Shown here: positions 16,763 through 26,104 of the stretch, in pieces
Layout: each line of letters opens with the position of its first letter
How positions within the stretch are numbered: the first letter of the stretch is position 1
UHGV virus genome: UHGV-0097969
DNA length: 45,847 nucleotides
Strand: one strand, 5' to 3'
Origin: a virus
Translations under genes and position numbers: made by a program
Notes under the pieces: model-generated
What the model was told of the DNA's origin: nothing
The model's database searches: none
Seen by the model: only the letters and a program-made list of their open reading frames with translations

Positions 16763-18619
16763 CTATATGGTTACGCCTTTACTTATAACTCTACGGCGTC
16801 TTCTACGTATACCTGACGAGTTCTGCACATACACATTACCTCGCATTTCCTGTTCGGCAAGCCAGTTAAAATTAGGGTTCAGAATTTCCATCGCGGCAGT
16901 TGCATAGTTACGGCAATCAAGAGGCTCGTTACGCTCGTAGACTTTCACCCACTTTTCTTTTGTCTGCCCATTTTTATATTCAAATATTTTTTTCTCTGAT
17001 AATAATCCTTTAAAGTATTCGGTATCATATCCTCTGTCAGAATCTAATGGGAAATGCATATAACCAGGACCAGGATCATGTAGTTTAATTCTTGCCATGA
17101 TGGTCCCTTTACCATCATCAACCCCCAAATTAAACAACATAGCCCCCACACGGTTATTATTACTTGGCTTTCCTATAAATGGTAAACCTACCCCACCACG
17201 CCCCTTGATAGAGTATATTCGCCTTGATTCTCTCGGCTTAGTAAAGCGATATACCTCTGTCGTAAAATGCCCACCAGAGTCAATACAAACGGAAGAAATC
17301 TGTAATTTTCGACCGTCACGGAATGACCAGCTACGGAGTAAGTATTCATCAAGTTGTTTCCAGACAACATCTTGTGCGGGATCACCTGGGAATATTTTAT
17401 ATTCTATCCCCCATGACTCCTTACCTTTTCCCCAACCGACCAATTCACAAACTAAATACGTGTCCTGTACGTCAACACCAGCACTTAACAATAAAACATC
17501 ATCTGGTAAAAACTCTTCAAACCTTATTCTGCGTTGCAACAAGTATTCAGGATCGATATCGTCTTTAGCATCCTCTTTCCATGGCTCACCCAGCTTAAGG
17601 TTAATAAACTCCATTAATCCATTTTTATCGCGGTTTCTGGTTGCTTCCGTAAATTCTTCAACCAGCTCTGACAATGCAACCCACGGGGAGTAAAGACTGT
17701 TAATATGAAAACCAACAATACCTTTAACTCCAGTATGTTCAGCTATCCATACCCCCTTCGCCAACCAATCAACGTCTGGTTTACCAGATCCGCGCATAAT
17801 CCCGCCGCACTCACAGCACTCATATCTGGCCGTTTCCGGTAACGCCTCACCTGAATCGCTCTTATCCCATCTGACTTGCGACCATTTCATCACCTGCATG
17901 GTGCCACAACATGGGCAAGGAACATGGTAGTAACGCTGATCGGAGAGCTTAAACCACTTGTGGATTTTGCTCGTTTCCTCCAAAACAGGAGTAGAAACAA
18001 AAACTTTCTTACGATTATGAAAGTTGGTAGTACGCTGAATACCTAGTTTTAGTGGGTCGCCCTCCTGCGTCACACCGTAACGATCAATCTCATCAGCTAA
18101 CAGTATTCGAATTGGCCTGGATGCAAGACCTGCTGGGGAATTAGCACCAACAAGTGCTATATATCCACCAGCGTAATGCTTCATACGTATAGTCGTGCTG
18201 GACTTTTTGGCTGCACCGCGCCCCTCTTTCCCTTCATGCAGCTTGTGTTTCAAACCAGGGGAATATTTGAACGTCGGATCAATACGCTCTTTTGAAAAAG
18301 CCTCAGCCGCCTCTACCGTTGGATAAATCATCAACTGAGGAGATGGCTCCTGATCTGCAAAGTAACCCATAACATTTAGCTGTAATTCGGATTTACCAAT
18401 TTGCGAGCTACATTGCATCACTACTGTTTCTGTATCAGCGTCACCAATAACATCCATTGGTTCACGCAAATATGGCACTCGGCTTGTACGCCACGGCCCT
18501 GGCTCTGGAGACGTTCCCGGCGCTACATGACGATACTTATCAGCCCATTCGGAAACAGTTAGCCGTGATTTAGGGCGAAGCGCACGGAAAAAAGCGGTGC
18601 TCCATACTGTTTCGCCCAT
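16763..18619 (-). CDS. terminase large subunit, GpA family
   Basis: 618 aa; WADKYRHV... N-terminus, ATPase region, Cys cluster HVPCPCCG...YECCECG as in lambda gpA. Confidence 0.9.
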   Translation of the reverse strand: MGETVWSTAFFRALRPKSRLTVSEWADKYRHVAPGTSPEPGPWRTSRVPYLREPMDVIGDADTETVVMQCSSQIGKSELQLNVMGYFADQEPSPQLMIYPTVEAAEAFSKERIDPTFKYSPGLKHKLHEGKEGRGAAKKSSTTIRMKHYAGGYIALVGANSPAGLASRPIRILLADEIDRYGVTQEGDPLKLGIQRTTNFHNRKKVFVSTPVLEETSKIHKWFKLSDQRYYHVPCPCCGTMQVMKWSQVRWDKSDSGEALPETARYECCECGGIMRGSGKPDVDWLAKGVWIAEHTGVKGIVGFHINSLYSPWVALSELVEEFTEATRNRDKNGLMEFINLKLGEPWKEDAKDDIDPEYLLQRRIRFEEFLPDDVLLLSAGVDVQDTYLVCELVGWGKGKESWGIEYKIFPGDPAQDVVWKQLDEYLLRSWSFRDGRKLQISSVCIDSGGHFTTEVYRFTKPRESRRIYSIKGRGGVGLPFIGKPSNNNRVGAMLFNLGVDDGKGTIMARIKLHDPGPGYMHFPLDSDRGYDTEYFKGLLSEKKIFEYKNGQTKEKWVKVYERNEPLDCRNYATAAMEILNPNFNWLAEQEMRGNVYVQNSSGIRRRRRRVISKGVTI

Positions 18620-18624
18620 GAGGT

Positions 18625-19185
18625 TTATTCTTCCTGCTTAATAAATCGGGATTCCTGGAGCGCCTGAAGCGCAAAATTAATCTCGTCTTCAATAATGCGT
18701 TCGATCTCCCTGGCTGTTTTGCCTTCACAACGGGGAGCTGCTCTTGGAGCAATACTAAATAAGCGGCTACGCAATTCATTAGCTGCCAGAAATGCATCAT
18801 CCCTGACCGCATCTTTAGCGATGAGAGAGCCTTCCTTTTCTTCAAATTCAAGGCGTTTCAGCTTTGCCTGATAAATTTTTTCTGCAGTCTTAGCCTTGTT
18901 GAATTGCACCGCAACACCGGAAGTACCACCAGCTAATCCGGCATCATCAGCGGGTAACTCTGGTTGTTCCGAAGATATCCCATGCCCTCTTTTTCCGTTT
19001 TCAGCAGATACCTCACGACCAACCTGTCGGCTCGCTTCATAAGCCGCACTAGCTTTATCAAAATCCAGCTTGCCGCTTTTCAGCACTGGAATGCGACCGG
19101 AACGACAGAGCTTCGTAACCATTGCCGGAGAAATACCTTTCCGGCGGGCAAACTCTGACTTACTGACGATGGCCATTACTTGCAA
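18625..19185 (-). CDS. terminase small subunit (Nu1-like, N-terminal HTH)
   Basis: Track start is TTG; likely ATG at 19176 overlapping the upstream stop (TAATG); HTH-like N-terminus; immediately upstream of large terminase. Confidence 0.55.
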   Translation of the reverse strand: MQVMAIVSKSEFARRKGISPAMVTKLCRSGRIPVLKSGKLDFDKASAAYEASRQVGREVSAENGKRGHGISSEQPELPADDAGLAGGTSGVAVQFNKAKTAEKIYQAKLKRLEFEEKEGSLIAKDAVRDDAFLAANELRSRLFSIAPRAAPRCEGKTAREIERIIEDEINFALQALQESRFIKQEE

Positions 19186-19766
19186 CCATTAGCAAGATAC
19201 TGAACAAATCCCTCATGCGTTTCATGCGCGTCGTGGTACTGACGATAAACATCCAGCAACAATGCAATTTCCATATCCGTCGCGGGAATACGTTCTTTAT
19301 CAATAGCCAGGTACTTAATTTGAACAACAGGGGAAGAATTATCGTCTTCTTCCTGCGGCTGTTCATCGCTTAACATTTCGTCAAGCTCTGCATCATTAAA
19401 CCCAAGCAGATCAATATCAAAATCATCATCCATTAACTCTTTGACTTCTTCGGCCAGAAGCTGCATATCCCAGCCAGCATTTAAGGCAAGCTTGTTATCT
19501 GCAATCCTGTAAGCCTTCTTCTGTTTTTCAGAAAGGTTACTCAACCGAATCGCCGGAACTTTATCCATTTCCAGAATTTCGGCTGCTGCAAGCCGCCCAT
19601 GCCCCGCAATCAGTTCATTCTTTTCATCGATCAGCACAGGATTAGTGAAACCGAACTCACGGATACTGTTCACCAACTGTTCAACCTGCTCATCTGAATG
19701 AGTCCGTGAATTTTTGGCGTATCTGAGCAGCTTACCGACTGGTAAATATTCGATTTTTAGAGCCAT
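19176..19766 (-). CDS. ParB-like nuclease domain protein
   Basis: 196 aa; ParB N-terminal motif ...LIAGHGRLAAA...; coupled to small terminase. Confidence 0.65.
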   Translation of the reverse strand: MALKIEYLPVGKLLRYAKNSRTHSDEQVEQLVNSIREFGFTNPVLIDEKNELIAGHGRLAAAEILEMDKVPAIRLSNLSEKQKKAYRIADNKLALNAGWDMQLLAEEVKELMDDDFDIDLLGFNDAELDEMLSDEQPQEEDDNSSPVVQIKYLAIDKERIPATDMEIALLLDVYRQYHDAHETHEGFVQYLANGCK

Positions 19767-20322
19767 TTTTTAACCGCCATAACACAACAGGTTAAAGAAA
19801 ACTGTTTAACTTATTGATACTAAAAGAGAAAAATGACGATCTTTTTACTCATAAAAAATCACACAAACCAGCATAATCATCTGATTTTATTAAGTTTTTA
19901 TAAGTAAAAAGGATCTTGAGATGGTGTTTTGGTTAAAAGATTGGATGTATTTGCATGATTTATAACGATTTTTATCAGAACAACATCACATTGGTTAAAG
20001 ATCTGCGCGTATCTTGATGATCTAAAAGAAATTTTCTACTTTCTTTTTACCAGCACAAATACAGCAAAAAATCACATTTTCCCGATATTTTTCAATGAGA
20101 TGAGTAAATTTCTTTTACCGCAACTTTTAACCTAACTTTTTTCACGTTTAGCTAGCCGAACATCGGGGTTCGAATGACCCGCATCCAACGCTTTTGGCCA
20201 GAAGGACCCAATTCTGCCGGACGATGAAACGATGCTCGTGCTCCCCCACGGACAGCCAGCGAGCGACGCTACAGAACACAGTGAATACACCCTGCATAAC
20301 AACACCATCAACCACACGATGA

Positions 20323-21042
20323 TTAACGAGAGAACGTCTTAGAAAGGATGTCATCAATAGCCTTTGTGACTTCATCAGCAAACGCATCCTCACCAGCACG
20401 CAGCGCCACGCCATGCCAATCAAGACGCTGCGAATAGTTAGGTTGCTGGATGAACGTAAGGATCAACGTAGGACGCCGCCCAACGCGCTGCCAGACGCCT
20501 GGTTGAAGCGGGTTACTTGTACCAGGTCGAACAACAAAAAACTCCGTAGGCTTGCCCTGACGGCGATTTTGATGCGCATCTCGCTGAACTCTTAGGCCAG
20601 ATAAGACCTGCTGTAATTGCCCCCGCGAAATATTCCCGTATTTGTCCAGCTTTGCGCCGGGACCAGGAGCAAGCTGCCAGCCGTTAGGCAAATATCCACC
20701 AGCCCTTAGCGCCCCTTCTGAGCGTTTGTACTGTCGTTGGCCGCCTTCGATTTGCGGAGTCAACGTTACAGGGGCTGGCGTTCCACCCCATTCACGAGCA
20801 TACACAATGGCTGTAGGATCACTCTTCTTTGCGGCTAAAACGTAAGTAGAGTTCTGAATCCACGGCGTGGGCCTGTCAAATACCCGATTAATTTCATCCT
20901 TAATCGCAGCCTGAGAAGCCTTTGCCGTTCTGGTTGCTGTAAGCGCCATTGCGAACGGCAATTCGCGTTCTTCAAGGCGCTGGAGTTGTCGTTGAATATC
21001 CTGAGAAGAAAAATCCATCTTTATCTCAATTCTGTCAGCCAC
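20323..21042 (-). CDS. hypothetical protein
   Basis: 239-aa ORF, Gln/Arg/Pro-rich, no recognised motif. Confidence 0.4.
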   Translation of the reverse strand: MADRIEIKMDFSSQDIQRQLQRLEERELPFAMALTATRTAKASQAAIKDEINRVFDRPTPWIQNSTYVLAAKKSDPTAIVYAREWGGTPAPVTLTPQIEGGQRQYKRSEGALRAGGYLPNGWQLAPGPGAKLDKYGNISRGQLQQVLSGLRVQRDAHQNRRQGKPTEFFVVRPGTSNPLQPGVWQRVGRRPTLILTFIQQPNYSQRLDWHGVALRAGEDAFADEVTKAIDDILSKTFSR

Positions 21043-21058
21043 CAGCGCCTCCTACACA

Positions 21059-22438
21059 CTACTTAATCAGCGGCCGGAAAGCCGCCAGCACATCATCAGA
21101 TCGTCCGATTGTTGAACCACCAGGCAACGGCAACTCAAACTCAAAACGAACAGCTTTCTCCAGACTCGCCCAACTAAGGGAATCATCGTTAATGACGTGC
21201 AAATACCAGCTCTTACAGTTGAATATTGACCGCTTAATCCTGAAACCATGTACACGACACAACTGCTTCACTTCATCATCAGAGTGAAACTTCTGGTAAA
21301 ACCAGTGCCCCTTCCGGTACAACGCGGTAAAACCGTTATGATCAATAAAATAAAGCCGGCTTTTGGAACTCGCCGCTTGTGTTTGCTTCAGGACTGTTTC
21401 CAGCTCTCCACGGCTACGACCAGAAAAGAATATTGACCCACCAGCTTTACACAGGCCTTTCAGAACCGTCAGAACGGACCATTCAGCCTCGACACTATCG
21501 ACCGAGTTCAAAACGCTATCGCAAATCACGTAGTCGTAACGCCCTCGCGTTTTTAAGTCGTCCACCAGCGTATCAATCATCCGGTTTGTTGCGGTCCTAT
21601 CCAGAGTGTTTCCAGCGCCCTTACGGCGGAAAAGCTCGAGATCATGCAGGTTATATCCCTTTGCCCTGAGCATTCGCGCGTAGTCTCCCTGCCCCGAACC
21701 AAAATCAATTCCTCTTGGCGTCTTGGCAATGATCGGGAGGATCAACGACTCATACAGGTTTGATTTCAGGCTGCCACCATTACGCAACCGCATAAGCTGC
21801 GCATACGTCTGGATGTATGTTGTTTTCTCCAGATGAGAATACTCAAATACACCATAAGTTTTATTCAGATAACTTTGGTATTTTTCCTTCTCAACATCAG
21901 GGATCACAAACACCGTTAGCGGTGTGCGCGTCATTTTCGCTGCTAATGCATACTGAGCACAGTGAATAACCTCACCAGACTGAGTAGCAACACAACCACC
22001 CCACGGACCATACTTGATAACCAGTTCCGCTATGTTCTTTCGAACATATGCCATTTTCGCGCGCATATTGCCTGAGATCTGGCTTGCCGATACCTGAACA
22101 AAACCATGCTTATCTTCCAGACCGGACACCCTGCAACGCTCATCTCCGCTATCAAAATCCGTTCCGTTATGCAGTTGGTTAAACCGAACTTCGTCGTATA
22201 CCGTCGTTTCACAGGGCAACACATACACCGCAGCACGCGTTATTCCCAACTTACGTAGCGCCTTCGTCCTTTGGTGTCCCGCCACCAGCAAATCGCCGCG
22301 CACTATCAATGGCTTCACAAGCCCCAGCTCCCTGACGCTTTCGGCCAGCCTCGCAAGATCATCCTCACCGATAAAACGCGGGTTATATTCCGCGCCGCGT
22401 AGGTGCGTTATGTCGTAATTCAGGTGAAGCATCAGCAC
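21059..22438 (-). CDS. ParB-like N-terminal domain fused to class I SAM-dependent methyltransferase
   Basis: N-terminus ...LLVAGHQRTKALRKLG; C-terminal IDFGSGQGDY... and YDYVICDSVL Rossmann motifs; no DPPY/NPPW motif seen. Confidence 0.6.
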   Translation of the reverse strand: MLMLHLNYDITHLRGAEYNPRFIGEDDLARLAESVRELGLVKPLIVRGDLLVAGHQRTKALRKLGITRAAVYVLPCETTVYDEVRFNQLHNGTDFDSGDERCRVSGLEDKHGFVQVSASQISGNMRAKMAYVRKNIAELVIKYGPWGGCVATQSGEVIHCAQYALAAKMTRTPLTVFVIPDVEKEKYQSYLNKTYGVFEYSHLEKTTYIQTYAQLMRLRNGGSLKSNLYESLILPIIAKTPRGIDFGSGQGDYARMLRAKGYNLHDLELFRRKGAGNTLDRTATNRMIDTLVDDLKTRGRYDYVICDSVLNSVDSVEAEWSVLTVLKGLCKAGGSIFFSGRSRGELETVLKQTQAASSKSRLYFIDHNGFTALYRKGHWFYQKFHSDDEVKQLCRVHGFRIKRSIFNCKSWYLHVINDDSLSWASLEKAVRFEFELPLPGGSTIGRSDDVLAAFRPLIK

Positions 22439-23055
22439 ACCTCCCCAGCCAGCAATGCGGATACAAATCCGATATAGCTGCCATTATCATCAACATAACG
22501 AGACACCGCGCAGTCAAAACGATCCGCTTCCTCATCCGTTGCCGGGATTTTATGACCTCCAAATGACAGGTACTGAACTTTTACGCCTGATTTGGCCTCA
22601 TCCTTCTCAAATGGGATATCCATACCCTCTGTGTCATCGTAGACCGCCGCACTCAATAAGTTATCCAGTTCGCGCTGAGTAAAACCAATTGAGTCCAGAG
22701 CAAAATCATCGGCCGCAAGATCTGCAAGCTCCGCGCTTAACAACTCTTCATCCCAACCAGCATTCAGCGGAATACGGTTGTCGGCCAGACGATATGCCTT
22801 CTTCTGATTCTCCGTTAGCCCAGCCAGAACAATGCAGGGAACATCATCCATCCCCAACTGAGTGGCCGCAGCAATTCGACCATGACCAGCAATTACAACG
22901 TTGTTCTCGTCTATCAGGATCGGATTAGTCCATCCGTACTCCTGTATGCTGGCAACAATCTGATCTACCTGCTCCACGGAGTGTGTGCGAGCGTTCTTTT
23001 CATAACCAATCAACACAGAAAGTGGTAAAGAAACCACATTAAGATGTTTTGTCAT
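22432..23055 (-). CDS. ParB-like nuclease domain protein (paralog of 19176-19766)
   Basis: 207 aa; ...VIAGHGRIAAA...QKKAYRLADNR...LNAGWDEELL, collinear with the 196-aa paralog. Confidence 0.65.
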   Translation of the reverse strand: MTKHLNVVSLPLSVLIGYEKNARTHSVEQVDQIVASIQEYGWTNPILIDENNVVIAGHGRIAAATQLGMDDVPCIVLAGLTENQKKAYRLADNRIPLNAGWDEELLSAELADLAADDFALDSIGFTQRELDNLLSAAVYDDTEGMDIPFEKDEAKSGVKVQYLSFGGHKIPATDEEADRFDCAVSRYVDDNGSYIGFVSALLAGEVC

Positions 23056-23618: not shown

Positions 23619-23667
23619 AACATCACCTGAAAATAAAAAGCCCCGCGACACCGCGAGGCTGTAAGAG

Positions 23668-25022: not shown

Positions 25023-25138
25023 CGGGTTATCTCCGGTTTAACCAGGGCGGGTATCGCTCGGTTTCGGGTATAACCTTAGGAAATTTTTTCCCACCTGTAA
25101 AGCACTTTTTATATAAATCTATAATTATATAATTCTAT
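25023..25138 (-). promoter_or_regulatory. conserved promoter/leader cassette, copy a
   Basis: About 108 bp near-identical to 31667-31768 and 41761-41876; TTTACA-N17-TAAGGT promoter-like, conserved leader with SD, AT-rich octamers upstream. Confidence 0.5.
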
Positions 25139-25722
25139 GACAGTTGCCAGAGAGCATCATGCAACTGGATACCTCCGTTGCACTGGTTGCCCCAGCCATG
25201 CCAGCCATCAGGTAAATCACCGCGAGCAAACAGCTCAATACGAGGAACATCACCTAACAGTCTTACCAGCTTGTCACGAACCACATCAGGCTTCCGTGAA
25301 TGTTCCAGACGAGGCGATGTAAACGACTGAATGATCCCCGCATCAAGGCGGGTCGGCAGTTTGCCTTTTACCGCAAACAAGCAATCTTCACTGTTCGCAC
25401 GAGTCATATGCCCCATCCCCATCACCAGCTTATCTGGTTGTCGGCTACCACATTTGTTCCATGTAAAGCCCTTCATGGTCATAAGCCTGAATCCCCATGC
25501 TTTCACCACCAGCAACGCTTCTTCTGGCTGAGTCGGAACCCACCACATGGCCAACAAACACGATTCAGGATTAGCAAGCTGCCAGACAGGAATACGAGCA
25601 ATATCCTCAGCTTTCATCGTTGGATACTTAAAACCAGCGCCACGACTCCCATCCTTACACTTGTCTTTGTATTCCCAGGGGGGATCTGCATAAATCAGAT
25701 TAAACAATGCAATTGCCTCCAT
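25135..25722 (-). CDS. DNA N6-adenine methyltransferase, MT-A70 family
   Basis: N-terminal motif ...LIYADPPWEY... (DPPW). Confidence 0.75.
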   Translation of the reverse strand: MEAIALFNLIYADPPWEYKDKCKDGSRGAGFKYPTMKAEDIARIPVWQLANPESCLLAMWWVPTQPEEALLVVKAWGFRLMTMKGFTWNKCGSRQPDKLVMGMGHMTRANSEDCLFAVKGKLPTRLDAGIIQSFTSPRLEHSRKPDVVRDKLVRLLGDVPRIELFARGDLPDGWHGWGNQCNGGIQLHDALWQLS

Positions 25723-26028: not shown

Positions 26029-26104
26029 TGGTGGCCCCTACCGGATTTGAACCGATGACCGTGCGATTATGAGTCGCCTGCTCTAACCACTGAGCTAAGG
26101 GGCC
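26029..26104 (-). tRNA. tRNA with CAU anticodon (Ile2 or Met), CCA encoded
   Basis: Reverse complement GGCCCCTTAGCTCAGTGGTTAGAGCAGGCGACTCATAATCGCACGGTCATCGGTTCAAATCCGGTAGGGGCCACCA folds as a cloverleaf (7-bp acceptor, GCTC/GAGC D stem, TTCAAAT T loop); first half resembles ileX-type as recalled. Confidence 0.85.

Follow-up and report, generated by a model that had tools for sequence, protein, structure and literature searches.

A widely conserved ParB-fold/methyltransferase gene pair upstream of phage terminase genes, most likely a DNA modification cassette

What do three ParB-like proteins, one of them fused to a methyltransferase, do next to the terminase genes of a phage? The question is raised by a ~48 kb E. 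coli phage-plasmid, 79 of whose 82 E. coli matches are on plasmids, and of which a stretch of 45,847 nucleotides (UHGV-0097969; hereafter the window) was analysed. The whole gene cluster is carried on the minus strand in the order ParB1, fusion, 239-aa gene, gap, ParB3, TerS and TerL (Table 1), and the open reading frames lie where a preliminary description, made from the sequence alone, had placed them. The fusion is annotated in RefSeq as a protein of 457 aa with its start ATG at 22432. Stop and start codons overlap between ParB1 and the fusion, and again between ParB3 and TerS. The single operon proposed earlier is not established, since the cluster is interrupted by a non-coding gap with a probable cos site. 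No hairpin comparable to the terminator-like one upstream of the cluster occurs on the same strand from there to TerL, and this hairpin may delimit the transcription unit reading into ParB1.

Table 1. Features of the ParB/methyltransferase and terminase locus, in window coordinates
Feature	Position	Strand	Evidence or remark
Intrinsic-terminator-like hairpin, strong, upstream of cluster	23639..23660	minus	9-bp stem, 7 GC pairs, then T run
ParB1 (small ParB/Srx-fold protein, 207 aa)	22432..23055	minus	phrog_620, E = 4e-74
Fusion (ParB-N/class I methyltransferase, 459 aa)	21059..22438	minus	phrog_5475, E = 1.6e-265
239-aa protein	20323..21042	minus	phrog_1924 ('minor tail protein' label), E = 8e-97
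Non-coding gap, 556 bp	19767..20322		cluster split here; probable cos site inside
Probable cosN, inferred 12-nt cohesive end GGTCATTCGAAC	20168..20179	minus	ends of Yersinia phage records
AT-rich cosB-like region, five GGTTAAARR repeats, both orientations	19767..20132		pattern search
ParB3 (small ParB/Srx-fold paralogue, 196 aa)	19176..19766	minus	phrog_620, E = 5e-75
TerS, small terminase subunit	18625..19185	minus	phrog_57, E = 7e-42
TerL, large terminase subunit, lambda gpA type	16763..18619	minus	Pfam GpA_ATPase E = 7e-76, GpA_nuclease E = 2e-85

The locus comprises two separate units, a variable cassette (ParB1 and the fusion) and a backbone (the 239-aa gene, cos, ParB3, TerS and TerL), and not the single four-gene module that had been suggested. 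The 239-aa gene, ParB3 and TerS are retained in all 22 relatives with upstream sequence, and TerL is present too wherever the loci of these relatives reach that far, but only 3 of the 22 carry ParB1 and the fusion, and the backbone thus persists without them. One relative, L174, carries the scar of a deletion, located at GTTTGA microhomology. The 239-aa gene is the last backbone gene before cos and lies outside the cassette. Its product has no Pfam match. In the records of the unrelated Pseudomonas cos phages F10, MD8 and JBD68, the right end is closed by a homologue as the final gene, and just 7 of 70 IMG/VR loci have a member of this family following the fusion.

The gap likely contains the cos site, judging from the ends of related phage records. 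Three Yersinia phage records, 99% identical here, start and end within it, at window positions 20179/20180 in two records and 20167/20168 in one, with a spacing of exactly 12 nt between these break points. All five matches to the GGTTAAARR pattern in the window fall inside the 366 bp of the cosB-like region, in which no Rfam family was matched. ParB3 is best explained as a backbone paralogue, translationally coupled to the small terminase and situated just downstream of cos; it adjoins TerS in all 23 related loci, the majority of which lack the fusion. Its role is probably DNA handling tied to packaging, for which the methyltransferase would not be required.

ParB1 and the fusion are best explained as a mobile two-gene accessory cassette of temperate phages of several phyla. 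A small ParB lies directly upstream on the same strand, usually overlapping, in 55 of the 58 IMG/VR fusion loci with upstream sequence, and within 1.5 kb in two more. P0380 and P0381 are natural single chains in which a complete small ParB, C-terminal domain included, precedes the fusion (hhalign probability 95–96%, E about 1e-8). The same pair precedes TerS and TerL in Bacteroides phage BS-TP3 and recurs in prophages of alpha- and gammaproteobacteria and in metagenomic contigs. A terminase gene usually lies downstream, and the TerL proteins belong to at least four unrelated families; the position upstream of terminase noted in the preliminary description is real and conserved far beyond the E. 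coli phage-plasmid. A conserved third partner of ~150 aa, rich in cysteine and histidine and of unassigned fold, often accompanies the pair. The terminase-upstream position may merely be a common insertion hot-spot for accessory genes.

The fusion combines a ParB-type nucleotide pocket with an intact SAM-binding motif. Residues 1–92 form a ParB-N domain whose YNPR/GHQR/FNQLHN pocket is invariant, residues ~110–191 are a probable degenerate second ParB-like domain (E = 0.0035–0.009 against the small-ParB profile), and residues ~225–459 form a class I SAM methyltransferase, which carries E268 and the motifs DFGSGQG and CDSVLNSV, recognised earlier in the shorter forms GSGQG and DSVL. Among 72 fusion homologues, the pocket residues Y18, N19, R21, G54, H55, Q56, R57, N87 and N91 and the SAM motif residues D245, G249 and E268 are invariant. 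The family profile matches the Spo0J CTPase domain (E = 4e-8), the ParB_N score of 24.3 bits lies just under the Pfam cut-off of 26.3, and Methyltransf_23 (PF13489) scores 32.6 bits, above its cut-off of 27. The AF2 model of the fusion has a pLDDT of 94.7. The Methyltransf_23 score and the invariant DFGSGQG and E268 place the enzyme in class I, which is marked by a Rossmann-like fold, a GxGxG motif I and an acidic residue ending beta-2. PHROG 5475, matched over residues 3–459 (profile positions 1–457 of 458), is labelled 'unknown function', and no well-characterised family with known function was matched.

The catalytic domain lacks the hallmarks of the familiar DNA methylases. The absence of a DPPY/NPPW motif, remarked on earlier, is confirmed by the sequence, which holds no (D/N/S)PP(Y/F/W) and has CDSVLNSV at that position after beta-4; the Pfam families N6_N4_Mtase, MT-A70 and N6_Mtase do not match the fusion. 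Nor does the C5 cytosine class, with no DNA_methylase Pfam match, no PCQ/ENV motifs in the fusion and no C5 cytosine methyltransferase structure among the fold matches listed. By fold, the nearest neighbours of the domain are methyltransferases of small molecules and of tRNA rather than of DNA.

The ParB assignments, on whose profile support the preliminary description had staked its reading, are solid in HMM searches. Pfam, PHROG and profile matches to solved domains agree: ParB3 scores 33.7 bits for ParB_N (cut-off 26.3) and ParB1 23.9 bits, just below it, and the small-ParB family profile matches the solved ParB, Noc and Spo0J CTPase domains in the PDB (E = 9e-7). As for the claimed paralogy, ParB1 and ParB3 are 48% identical over their full length, and the ParB domain of the fusion shares only 28% identity with ParB1 over 74 residues. 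In comparison with canonical ParBs, the positions of Boxes I–III are kept, including the Box II arginine, and GHGR, which contains this arginine, is invariant among 38 small ParBs; fold homology of the N-domain and the Box II arginine (GxxR) place the proteins in the ParB/Srx superfamily (PF02195), whose solved ParB and Srx members share a beta-alpha-beta-beta-alpha-beta-alpha N-domain fold. The canonical catalytic Glu of GERR is replaced by His in all three proteins (GHQR, GHGR), so that clamp-like CTP cycling is not assured. The AF2 model of ParB1 has a nucleotide-binding domain (1–95), helices (103–139), a disordered acidic linker (139–159; pLDDT < 50) and a C-terminal domain of ~45 aa (160–204). 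Since ParB3-type proteins have the same C-terminal domain and yet occur without the fusion, this domain is not a fusion-specific interface. The nucleotide-binding domain of both small ParBs is of the kind that DNA amino-methylases carry N-terminally: it aligns to the first ~150 residues of the models of phrog_498 (E = 1.7e-50 for ParB1, 3.9e-52 for ParB3) and of PADLOC MTase_II (3e-37 and 2e-40, respectively), and 48 of the best 80 IMG/VR relatives are long ORFs with a DPPx motif.

The cassette resembles several known systems. Like the ParB-N/N6-N4 DNA methyltransferase fusions (for example B. cereus Bce_0392, PHROG 498, MTase_II), which are also prophage-encoded and often adjoin terminase genes, the fusion begins with a ParB/Srx domain, from the same clade as theirs, and ends with a SAM methyltransferase; it differs from them in its Methyltransf_23-like catalytic domain without (D/N/S)PP(Y/F/W), in the insertion of the putative second ParB-like domain, and in the separate small ParB encoded upstream almost always. 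A Bacillus cereus prophage ParB-methylase fusion encoded beside a terminase small-subunit gene has DNA-nicking activity (PMC3592412, PMC5512222). The layout of ParB1, with a nucleotide-binding domain, helical pair, linker, C-terminal domain and no DNA-binding domain, is like that published for the 5mYOX-associated ParB activators, which adjoin and are required by a post-replicative DNA-modifying enzyme, the phage thymine dioxygenases needing them for activity on dsDNA (PMC13229309). Unlike in that system, the partner here is a methyltransferase with ParB domains of its own, and the reference plasmid record carries no annotated TET/JBP dioxygenase. Canonical CTP-dependent DNA clamps (ParB, Noc, KorB) share the homologous N-terminal fold and the Box I–III positions, whereas the present proteins have no HTH, ParA partner or ParA-binding motif, carry GHQR or GHGR in place of GERR, and are ~200 aa long or fused to an enzyme.

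The architecture of the fusion is already catalogued without an assigned function. In a 2025 PNAS survey (PMC12704722), fusions of a ParB-CTPase fold to Methyltransf_23 (PF13489) have the same Pfam architecture and are likewise enriched in phages and prophages, the likeness being one of architecture. The survey reports that ParB-fold/SAM-methyltransferase fusions bind ATP, one phage and one bacterial construct having been made for NTP-binding assays; it assigns the fusions neither substrate nor function, and its accessible part mentions neither the partner small ParB nor the terminase linkage seen here.

The cassette is widely conserved and most likely modifies DNA, and the packaging-linked DNA modification or anti-restriction role raised in the preliminary description is plausible. 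Tentatively, we favour a late-infection enzyme that modifies DNA with the assistance of ParB and under the control of NTP. Its place at the front of the block of packaging genes makes late expression of the cassette probable. ParB1 and the fusion protein would form one complex, in which binding of a nucleotide triphosphate to the ParB folds would gate engagement with, or activation on, dsDNA, as ParB domains do in the ParB-DNA-methylase fusions and the ParB-activated thymine dioxygenases. Before encapsidation, the C-terminal class I domain would use SAM to methylate the replicated phage DNA. With neither amino-methylase nor C5-methylase motifs in its active site, it would modify a non-canonical position, and the payoff would likely be protection against host restriction or a mark on phage DNA.

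A serious rival, though somewhat less likely, is that the substrate of the methyltransferase is not DNA but a nucleotide or other small molecule, an RNA such as a tRNA, or a protein such as a packaging or host protein. The ParB folds would then be ATP/CTP-binding regulatory or substrate-binding modules, comparable to sulfiredoxin, SerK and SbnI. The lack of both DPPY-type and PCQ/ENV motifs and of a DNA-binding HTH in ParB1, ParB3 and the fusion, by Pfam and AF2 models, speaks for such a substrate and against DNA, and the cysteine- and histidine-rich partner frequent beside the pair is in keeping with it; the same phage also already encodes an MT-A70 DNA methylase (Pfam), which likewise counts against the DNA reading. 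However, the ParB domain belongs to the clade attached to true DNA methylases, the cassette shares its genomic niche with ParB-DNA-methylase genes, class I folds say little about substrate, and the sole ParB partner of a phage enzyme tested so far works on dsDNA.

Less likely still, the small ParB and the tandem-ParB/methyltransferase may be a nucleotide-gated late machine that installs a methyl mark which none of the three classical classes of DNA methylase makes. Such a mark could lie at an uncommon position of a base, on the backbone, or on a packaging-associated non-DNA target. If true, phages would have a further, novel system of modification or anti-defence, in most lineages with the ~150-aa protein as a third component.

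We consider it improbable that the ParB-fold proteins are nucleases or nickases that help terminase to process concatemers at cos or that break down the DNA of hosts or competitors, with the methyltransferase protecting phage DNA in the manner of restriction-modification. The nicking reported for the ParB-methylase fusion, the DNase activity reported for Osa and other ParB/Srx proteins, the overlap of ParB3 with TerS ~400 bp downstream of the putative cosN, and the HNH nucleases that other cos phages have in the same niche are all consistent with such a role. The GpA-type TerL, however, has its own nuclease domain, the pair is found with unrelated terminases, and most relatives with the same terminase and cos region have no cassette, which is thus not needed for packaging.

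A partition role in maintaining the phage-plasmid, suggested by its plasmid-prophage nature and by the annotation 'chromosome (plasmid) partitioning protein' in some records, is very improbable and was rejected: the three proteins have no HTH_ParB match in Pfam and score 29.8, 16.4 and 40.1 bits for TIGR00180 (cut-off 58.45), no LG(R/K)GL ParA-interaction motif is visible at their N-termini, the ParA gene of the reference plasmid record lies ~13 kb from ParB1 beside a small downstream gene of its own, and the pair also occurs in chromosomally integrated prophages and in BS-TP3, which was isolated from sewage and whose genome record is linear.

A small ParB almost always accompanies the fusion of a ParB-N domain to a class I SAM methyltransferase (PHROG 5475) in phage genomes. 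The fusion family comprises ~309 clusters at 50% identity (E ≤ 1e-30 among 1.84 billion representatives) from phages of Proteobacteria, Bacteroidota, and Firmicutes, and nearly all of its members, among the matches listed, are 440–500 aa long. Of 70 full-length fusion loci in an IMG/VR survey, 58 have upstream sequence, and a small ParB lies directly upstream of the fusion in 55 of them. The order ~200-aa ParB, fusion (with overlapping stop and start), and terminase genes was found in six metagenomic or genomic contexts and in Bacteroides phage BS-TP3, and the family of the large terminase (TerL) behind the pair varies among GpA, TerL_ATPase, Terminase_6, and Terminase_3. A recognizable TerL occurs within 4.5 kb of the fusion in at least 33 of 54 loci, a lower bound given the few TerL seed sequences. 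In two natural database proteins, P0380 (658 aa) and P0381 (659 aa), one chain holds an entire small ParB, C-terminal domain included, together with the fusion, and this gene-fusion evidence indicates that the two proteins work together. A distant fusion (27% identity) in Brochothrix phage BtpYZU02 is without the small-ParB partner.

The preliminary description had treated the ParB-like genes, the fusion, and a 239-aa unknown as one module, but the cluster consists of two units, and most relatives keep the backbone (239-aa gene, gap, ParB3, TerS, and TerL) without the cassette (ParB1 and the fusion). ParB3 orthologues of ≥76% identity were examined in 23 IMG/VR loci, 22 of which include upstream sequence. 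In every one of these 22, the 239-aa gene, the gap, ParB3, and the small terminase (TerS) follow in that order, with TerL next where the locus reaches, and only three of the 22 carry ParB1 and the fusion. The backbone of locus L174 (IMGVR_UViG_2713896902_000003) shares 97% identity with the window, and the locus contains a 62-aa chimeric ORF (L174:4519-4707). In this ORF the N-terminus encoded by the phrog_1935 gene, which is located upstream of ParB1, is followed by the C-terminal 23 residues of the fusion, and the junction shows a GTTTGA microhomology (equivalents of window ~23576 and ~21154). The ORF is a deletion scar, left where a close relative lost ParB1 and most of the fusion. Because the backbone persists in cassette-less loci and in the L174 deletion, the element can be maintained without the cassette. 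Among complete E. coli genomes (n = 5426), the cassette is almost fixed, with the backbone in 72 and the cassette in 71, so that ~1.3% (71/5426) carry the cassette on phage-plasmids.

Features of the ParB/methyltransferase region and associated genes (window positions unless a database locus, L, is named)
Feature	Coordinates	Strand	Description
ParB1	23055..22432	-	ORF, 207 aa
Fusion	22438..21059	-	ORF, 459 aa
239-aa ORF	21042..20323	-	phrog_1924
Gap			556 bp, between 239-aa ORF and ParB3
ParB3	19766..19176	-	ORF, 196 aa
TerS, then TerL		-	After ParB3 in transcription direction
Two terminator-like hairpins	24534-24511 and 23660-23639	- (coding strand)	Strong, intrinsic type; upstream of ParB1 cluster
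MT-A70 gene	25135-25722		Family of DNA adenine methyltransferases, DPPW motif
tRNA gene	26029-26104		Anticodon CAT
~150-aa partner	L005:2210-2644; L006:9473-9973; L007:9412-9867; L003:11419-11883
DUF3560 proteins	L001:13135-14202; L006:986-2926; L007:1026-1844

The backbone includes a probable cos site. Records of Yersinia phages break at window 20179/20180 (two records) and 20167/20168 (one record), and the 12-nt distance between these points implies a cohesive end, GGTCATTCGAAC, at 20168–20179. All five window matches to GGTTAAARR fall within 366 bp (19767–20132) between the cos site and the ParB3 start, a cluster resembling a cosB array; a search of the gap for non-coding RNA gave a spurious miRNA match and nothing else. 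With cos in the gap, ParB1, the fusion, and the 239-aa gene would lie at the right end of the virion DNA and ParB3, TerS, and TerL at the left end, and the two groups would be contiguous only in the circular or concatemeric form, where transcription could possibly read through cos as in lambda. The 239-aa protein has no Pfam, NCBIfam, or PDB sequence match, and its family is the last gene before the right end in F10, MD8, and JBD68-type Pseudomonas phage records; the conserved feature of phrog_1924 is this position beside cos, not its "minor tail" label. The gene follows the fusion in the window lineage only (7/70 IMG/VR loci), and synteny ruled out the 239-aa protein as a member of the cassette. 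ParB3 probably has a packaging-proximal function independent of the methyltransferase.

The domain assignments made earlier from the sequence held up: ParB-N in three proteins and Methyltransf_23 in the fusion are backed by Pfam, PHROG, NCBIfam, and PADLOC, and the fusion has the motifs DFGSGQG and CDSVLNSV and lacks a DPPY-type motif. Among PADLOC defense-system models, the sole match was to a type II methylase model, in its ParB portion. Family profiles of the fusion (E = 4e-8) and of the small ParBs (E = 9e-7) match CTPase domains in solved structures of Spo0J, ParB, Noc, and PadC. ParB1 and ParB3 are full-length paralogues with 48% identity, and the ParB domain of the fusion is more distant (28% identity to ParB1 over 74 residues). 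The ParB1 model consists of a nucleotide-binding domain (residues 1–95), a helical pair (103–139), a disordered acidic linker (139–159), and a C-terminal domain of a beta-hairpin and two helices (160–204), with no HTH, which is the layout published for the ParBs through which phage thymine dioxygenases are activated on dsDNA (PMC13229309). Conservation of the C-terminal domain extends over 49 distinct small ParBs adjoining fusions; this domain was rejected as a fusion-specific interface because ParB3 orthologues retain it in fusion-less phages. The nucleotide-binding domain of the small ParBs belongs to the clade usual at the N-terminus of DNA amino-methylases, and 48 long ORFs with a DPPx motif were found among its 80 closest IMG/VR relatives. 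A partition role for the ParB-like genes was rejected as highly improbable.

The AlphaFold model of the fusion, built on an alignment of 72 homologues (pLDDT 94.7, pTM 0.90), has a ParB-N fold at residues 1–92, and the pocket residues Y18, N19, R21, G54, H55, Q56, R57, N87, and N91 are invariant across these homologues. Residues ~112–191 are modeled with the same strand and helix order as ParB-N and match small-ParB profiles in the correct register (E = 0.0035–0.009), with the Box II arginine missing. This segment is probably a degenerate second ParB-like domain, a grading based on secondary-structure order since the direct comparison with the N-domain in an internal-repeat test was not significant (E = 0.12). 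The class I methyltransferase spans residues ~225–459; motif I is invariant, beta-2 ends in an acidic residue, and the active site differs from that of every classical DNA methylase.

We tentatively propose, at a confidence that stops somewhat short of probable, that ParB1 and the fusion form a nucleotide-dependent, dsDNA-engaging enzyme. Nucleotide binding by the ParB folds would let the complex engage dsDNA or become activated on it, and, late in infection, it would methylate a non-canonical position in replicated phage DNA. The nearest characterized relatives are ParB-DNA-methylase fusions. In fold searches of PDB libraries, the catalytic domain resembles small-molecule and tRNA methyltransferases, and a substrate other than DNA is a serious rival that we regard as possible if rather doubtful. 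A nuclease role is quite unlikely; one of the characterized ParB-DNA-methylase fusions has nicking activity. A 2025 survey (PMC12704722) lists the ParB-fold/Methyltransf_23 architecture as phage-enriched with no function assigned, describes constructs for expressing one example from a phage and one from a bacterium, and reports ATP binding for ParB-fold/SAM-methyltransferase fusions. The literature found makes no mention of the near-obligatory small-ParB partner, natural fusions of both proteins, the probable second ParB-like domain, a third partner of ~150 aa, the linkage to terminases of unrelated families, or the cassette/backbone split.

ParB-fold proteins are emerging as nucleotide-gated regulators far beyond chromosome segregation, and one has already been shown to activate a phage DNA-modifying enzyme. 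In the present family, a methyltransferase whose active site is not that of a classical DNA methylase is joined to the ParB fold, which apparently occurs twice within the fusion and once more in a partner of its own. If the substrate is DNA, methylation by the ParB1-fusion complex would be novel in its chemistry or in how it is targeted, with a bearing on restriction evasion and on phage and plasmid host range; if it is not, phages would be shown to use the ParB fold in a new way. The proposal is testable, since nature provides near-isogenic variants that have or lack the cassette, and the cassette size suits expression in E. coli.

In 44 of the 70 IMG/VR loci, the downstream neighbor of the fusion is the ~150-aa protein, which has the conserved motifs RYFWAK, HCAxCL, GDxxYxCGV, and LTCRNFQFGA. 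It has no Pfam or PHROG match, and tblastn found no copy in the window. This protein may be a third component of the module, its place being taken by the 239-aa gene in the window lineage.

The window region is 100% identical to p21KM1392_3, a circular 49.4-kb E. coli plasmid, and matches ~70 further E. coli records, with 79 of 82 matching places on plasmids. Escherichia phage vB_EcoM-613R2 and three Yersinia phages are 99% identical to the region. Because the reference plasmid has RepA and ParA together with a lysis cassette, a lambda gpA-type terminase, and a contractile tail, besides a toxin-antitoxin pair, the element is a phage-plasmid. A literature search found no publications on the Yersinia phages, and the entry in an E. 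coli prophage preprint reads "ParB" and nothing beyond. The ParB1 cluster is separated from the lysis/MT-A70 region by both hairpins, which suggest antitermination or a separate late promoter. The MT-A70 gene is a separate gene 2 kb upstream, inside the same variable region that differs in L174. The equivalent of the nearby tRNA gene is tRNA-Ile according to RefSeq and tRNA-Met according to ARAGORN and the Yersinia phage record, and a possible identity is tRNA-Ile2 of the lysidine type. Two distant prophages carry an opposite-strand Amidoligase_2 gene that separates the ParB/methyltransferase pair from the terminase genes (L003:13054-19196 and L007:10904-12289), accompanied in L003 by GGACT-domain genes. 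Three cassette-bearing elements that are otherwise unrelated each have DUF3560 proteins in their early regions.
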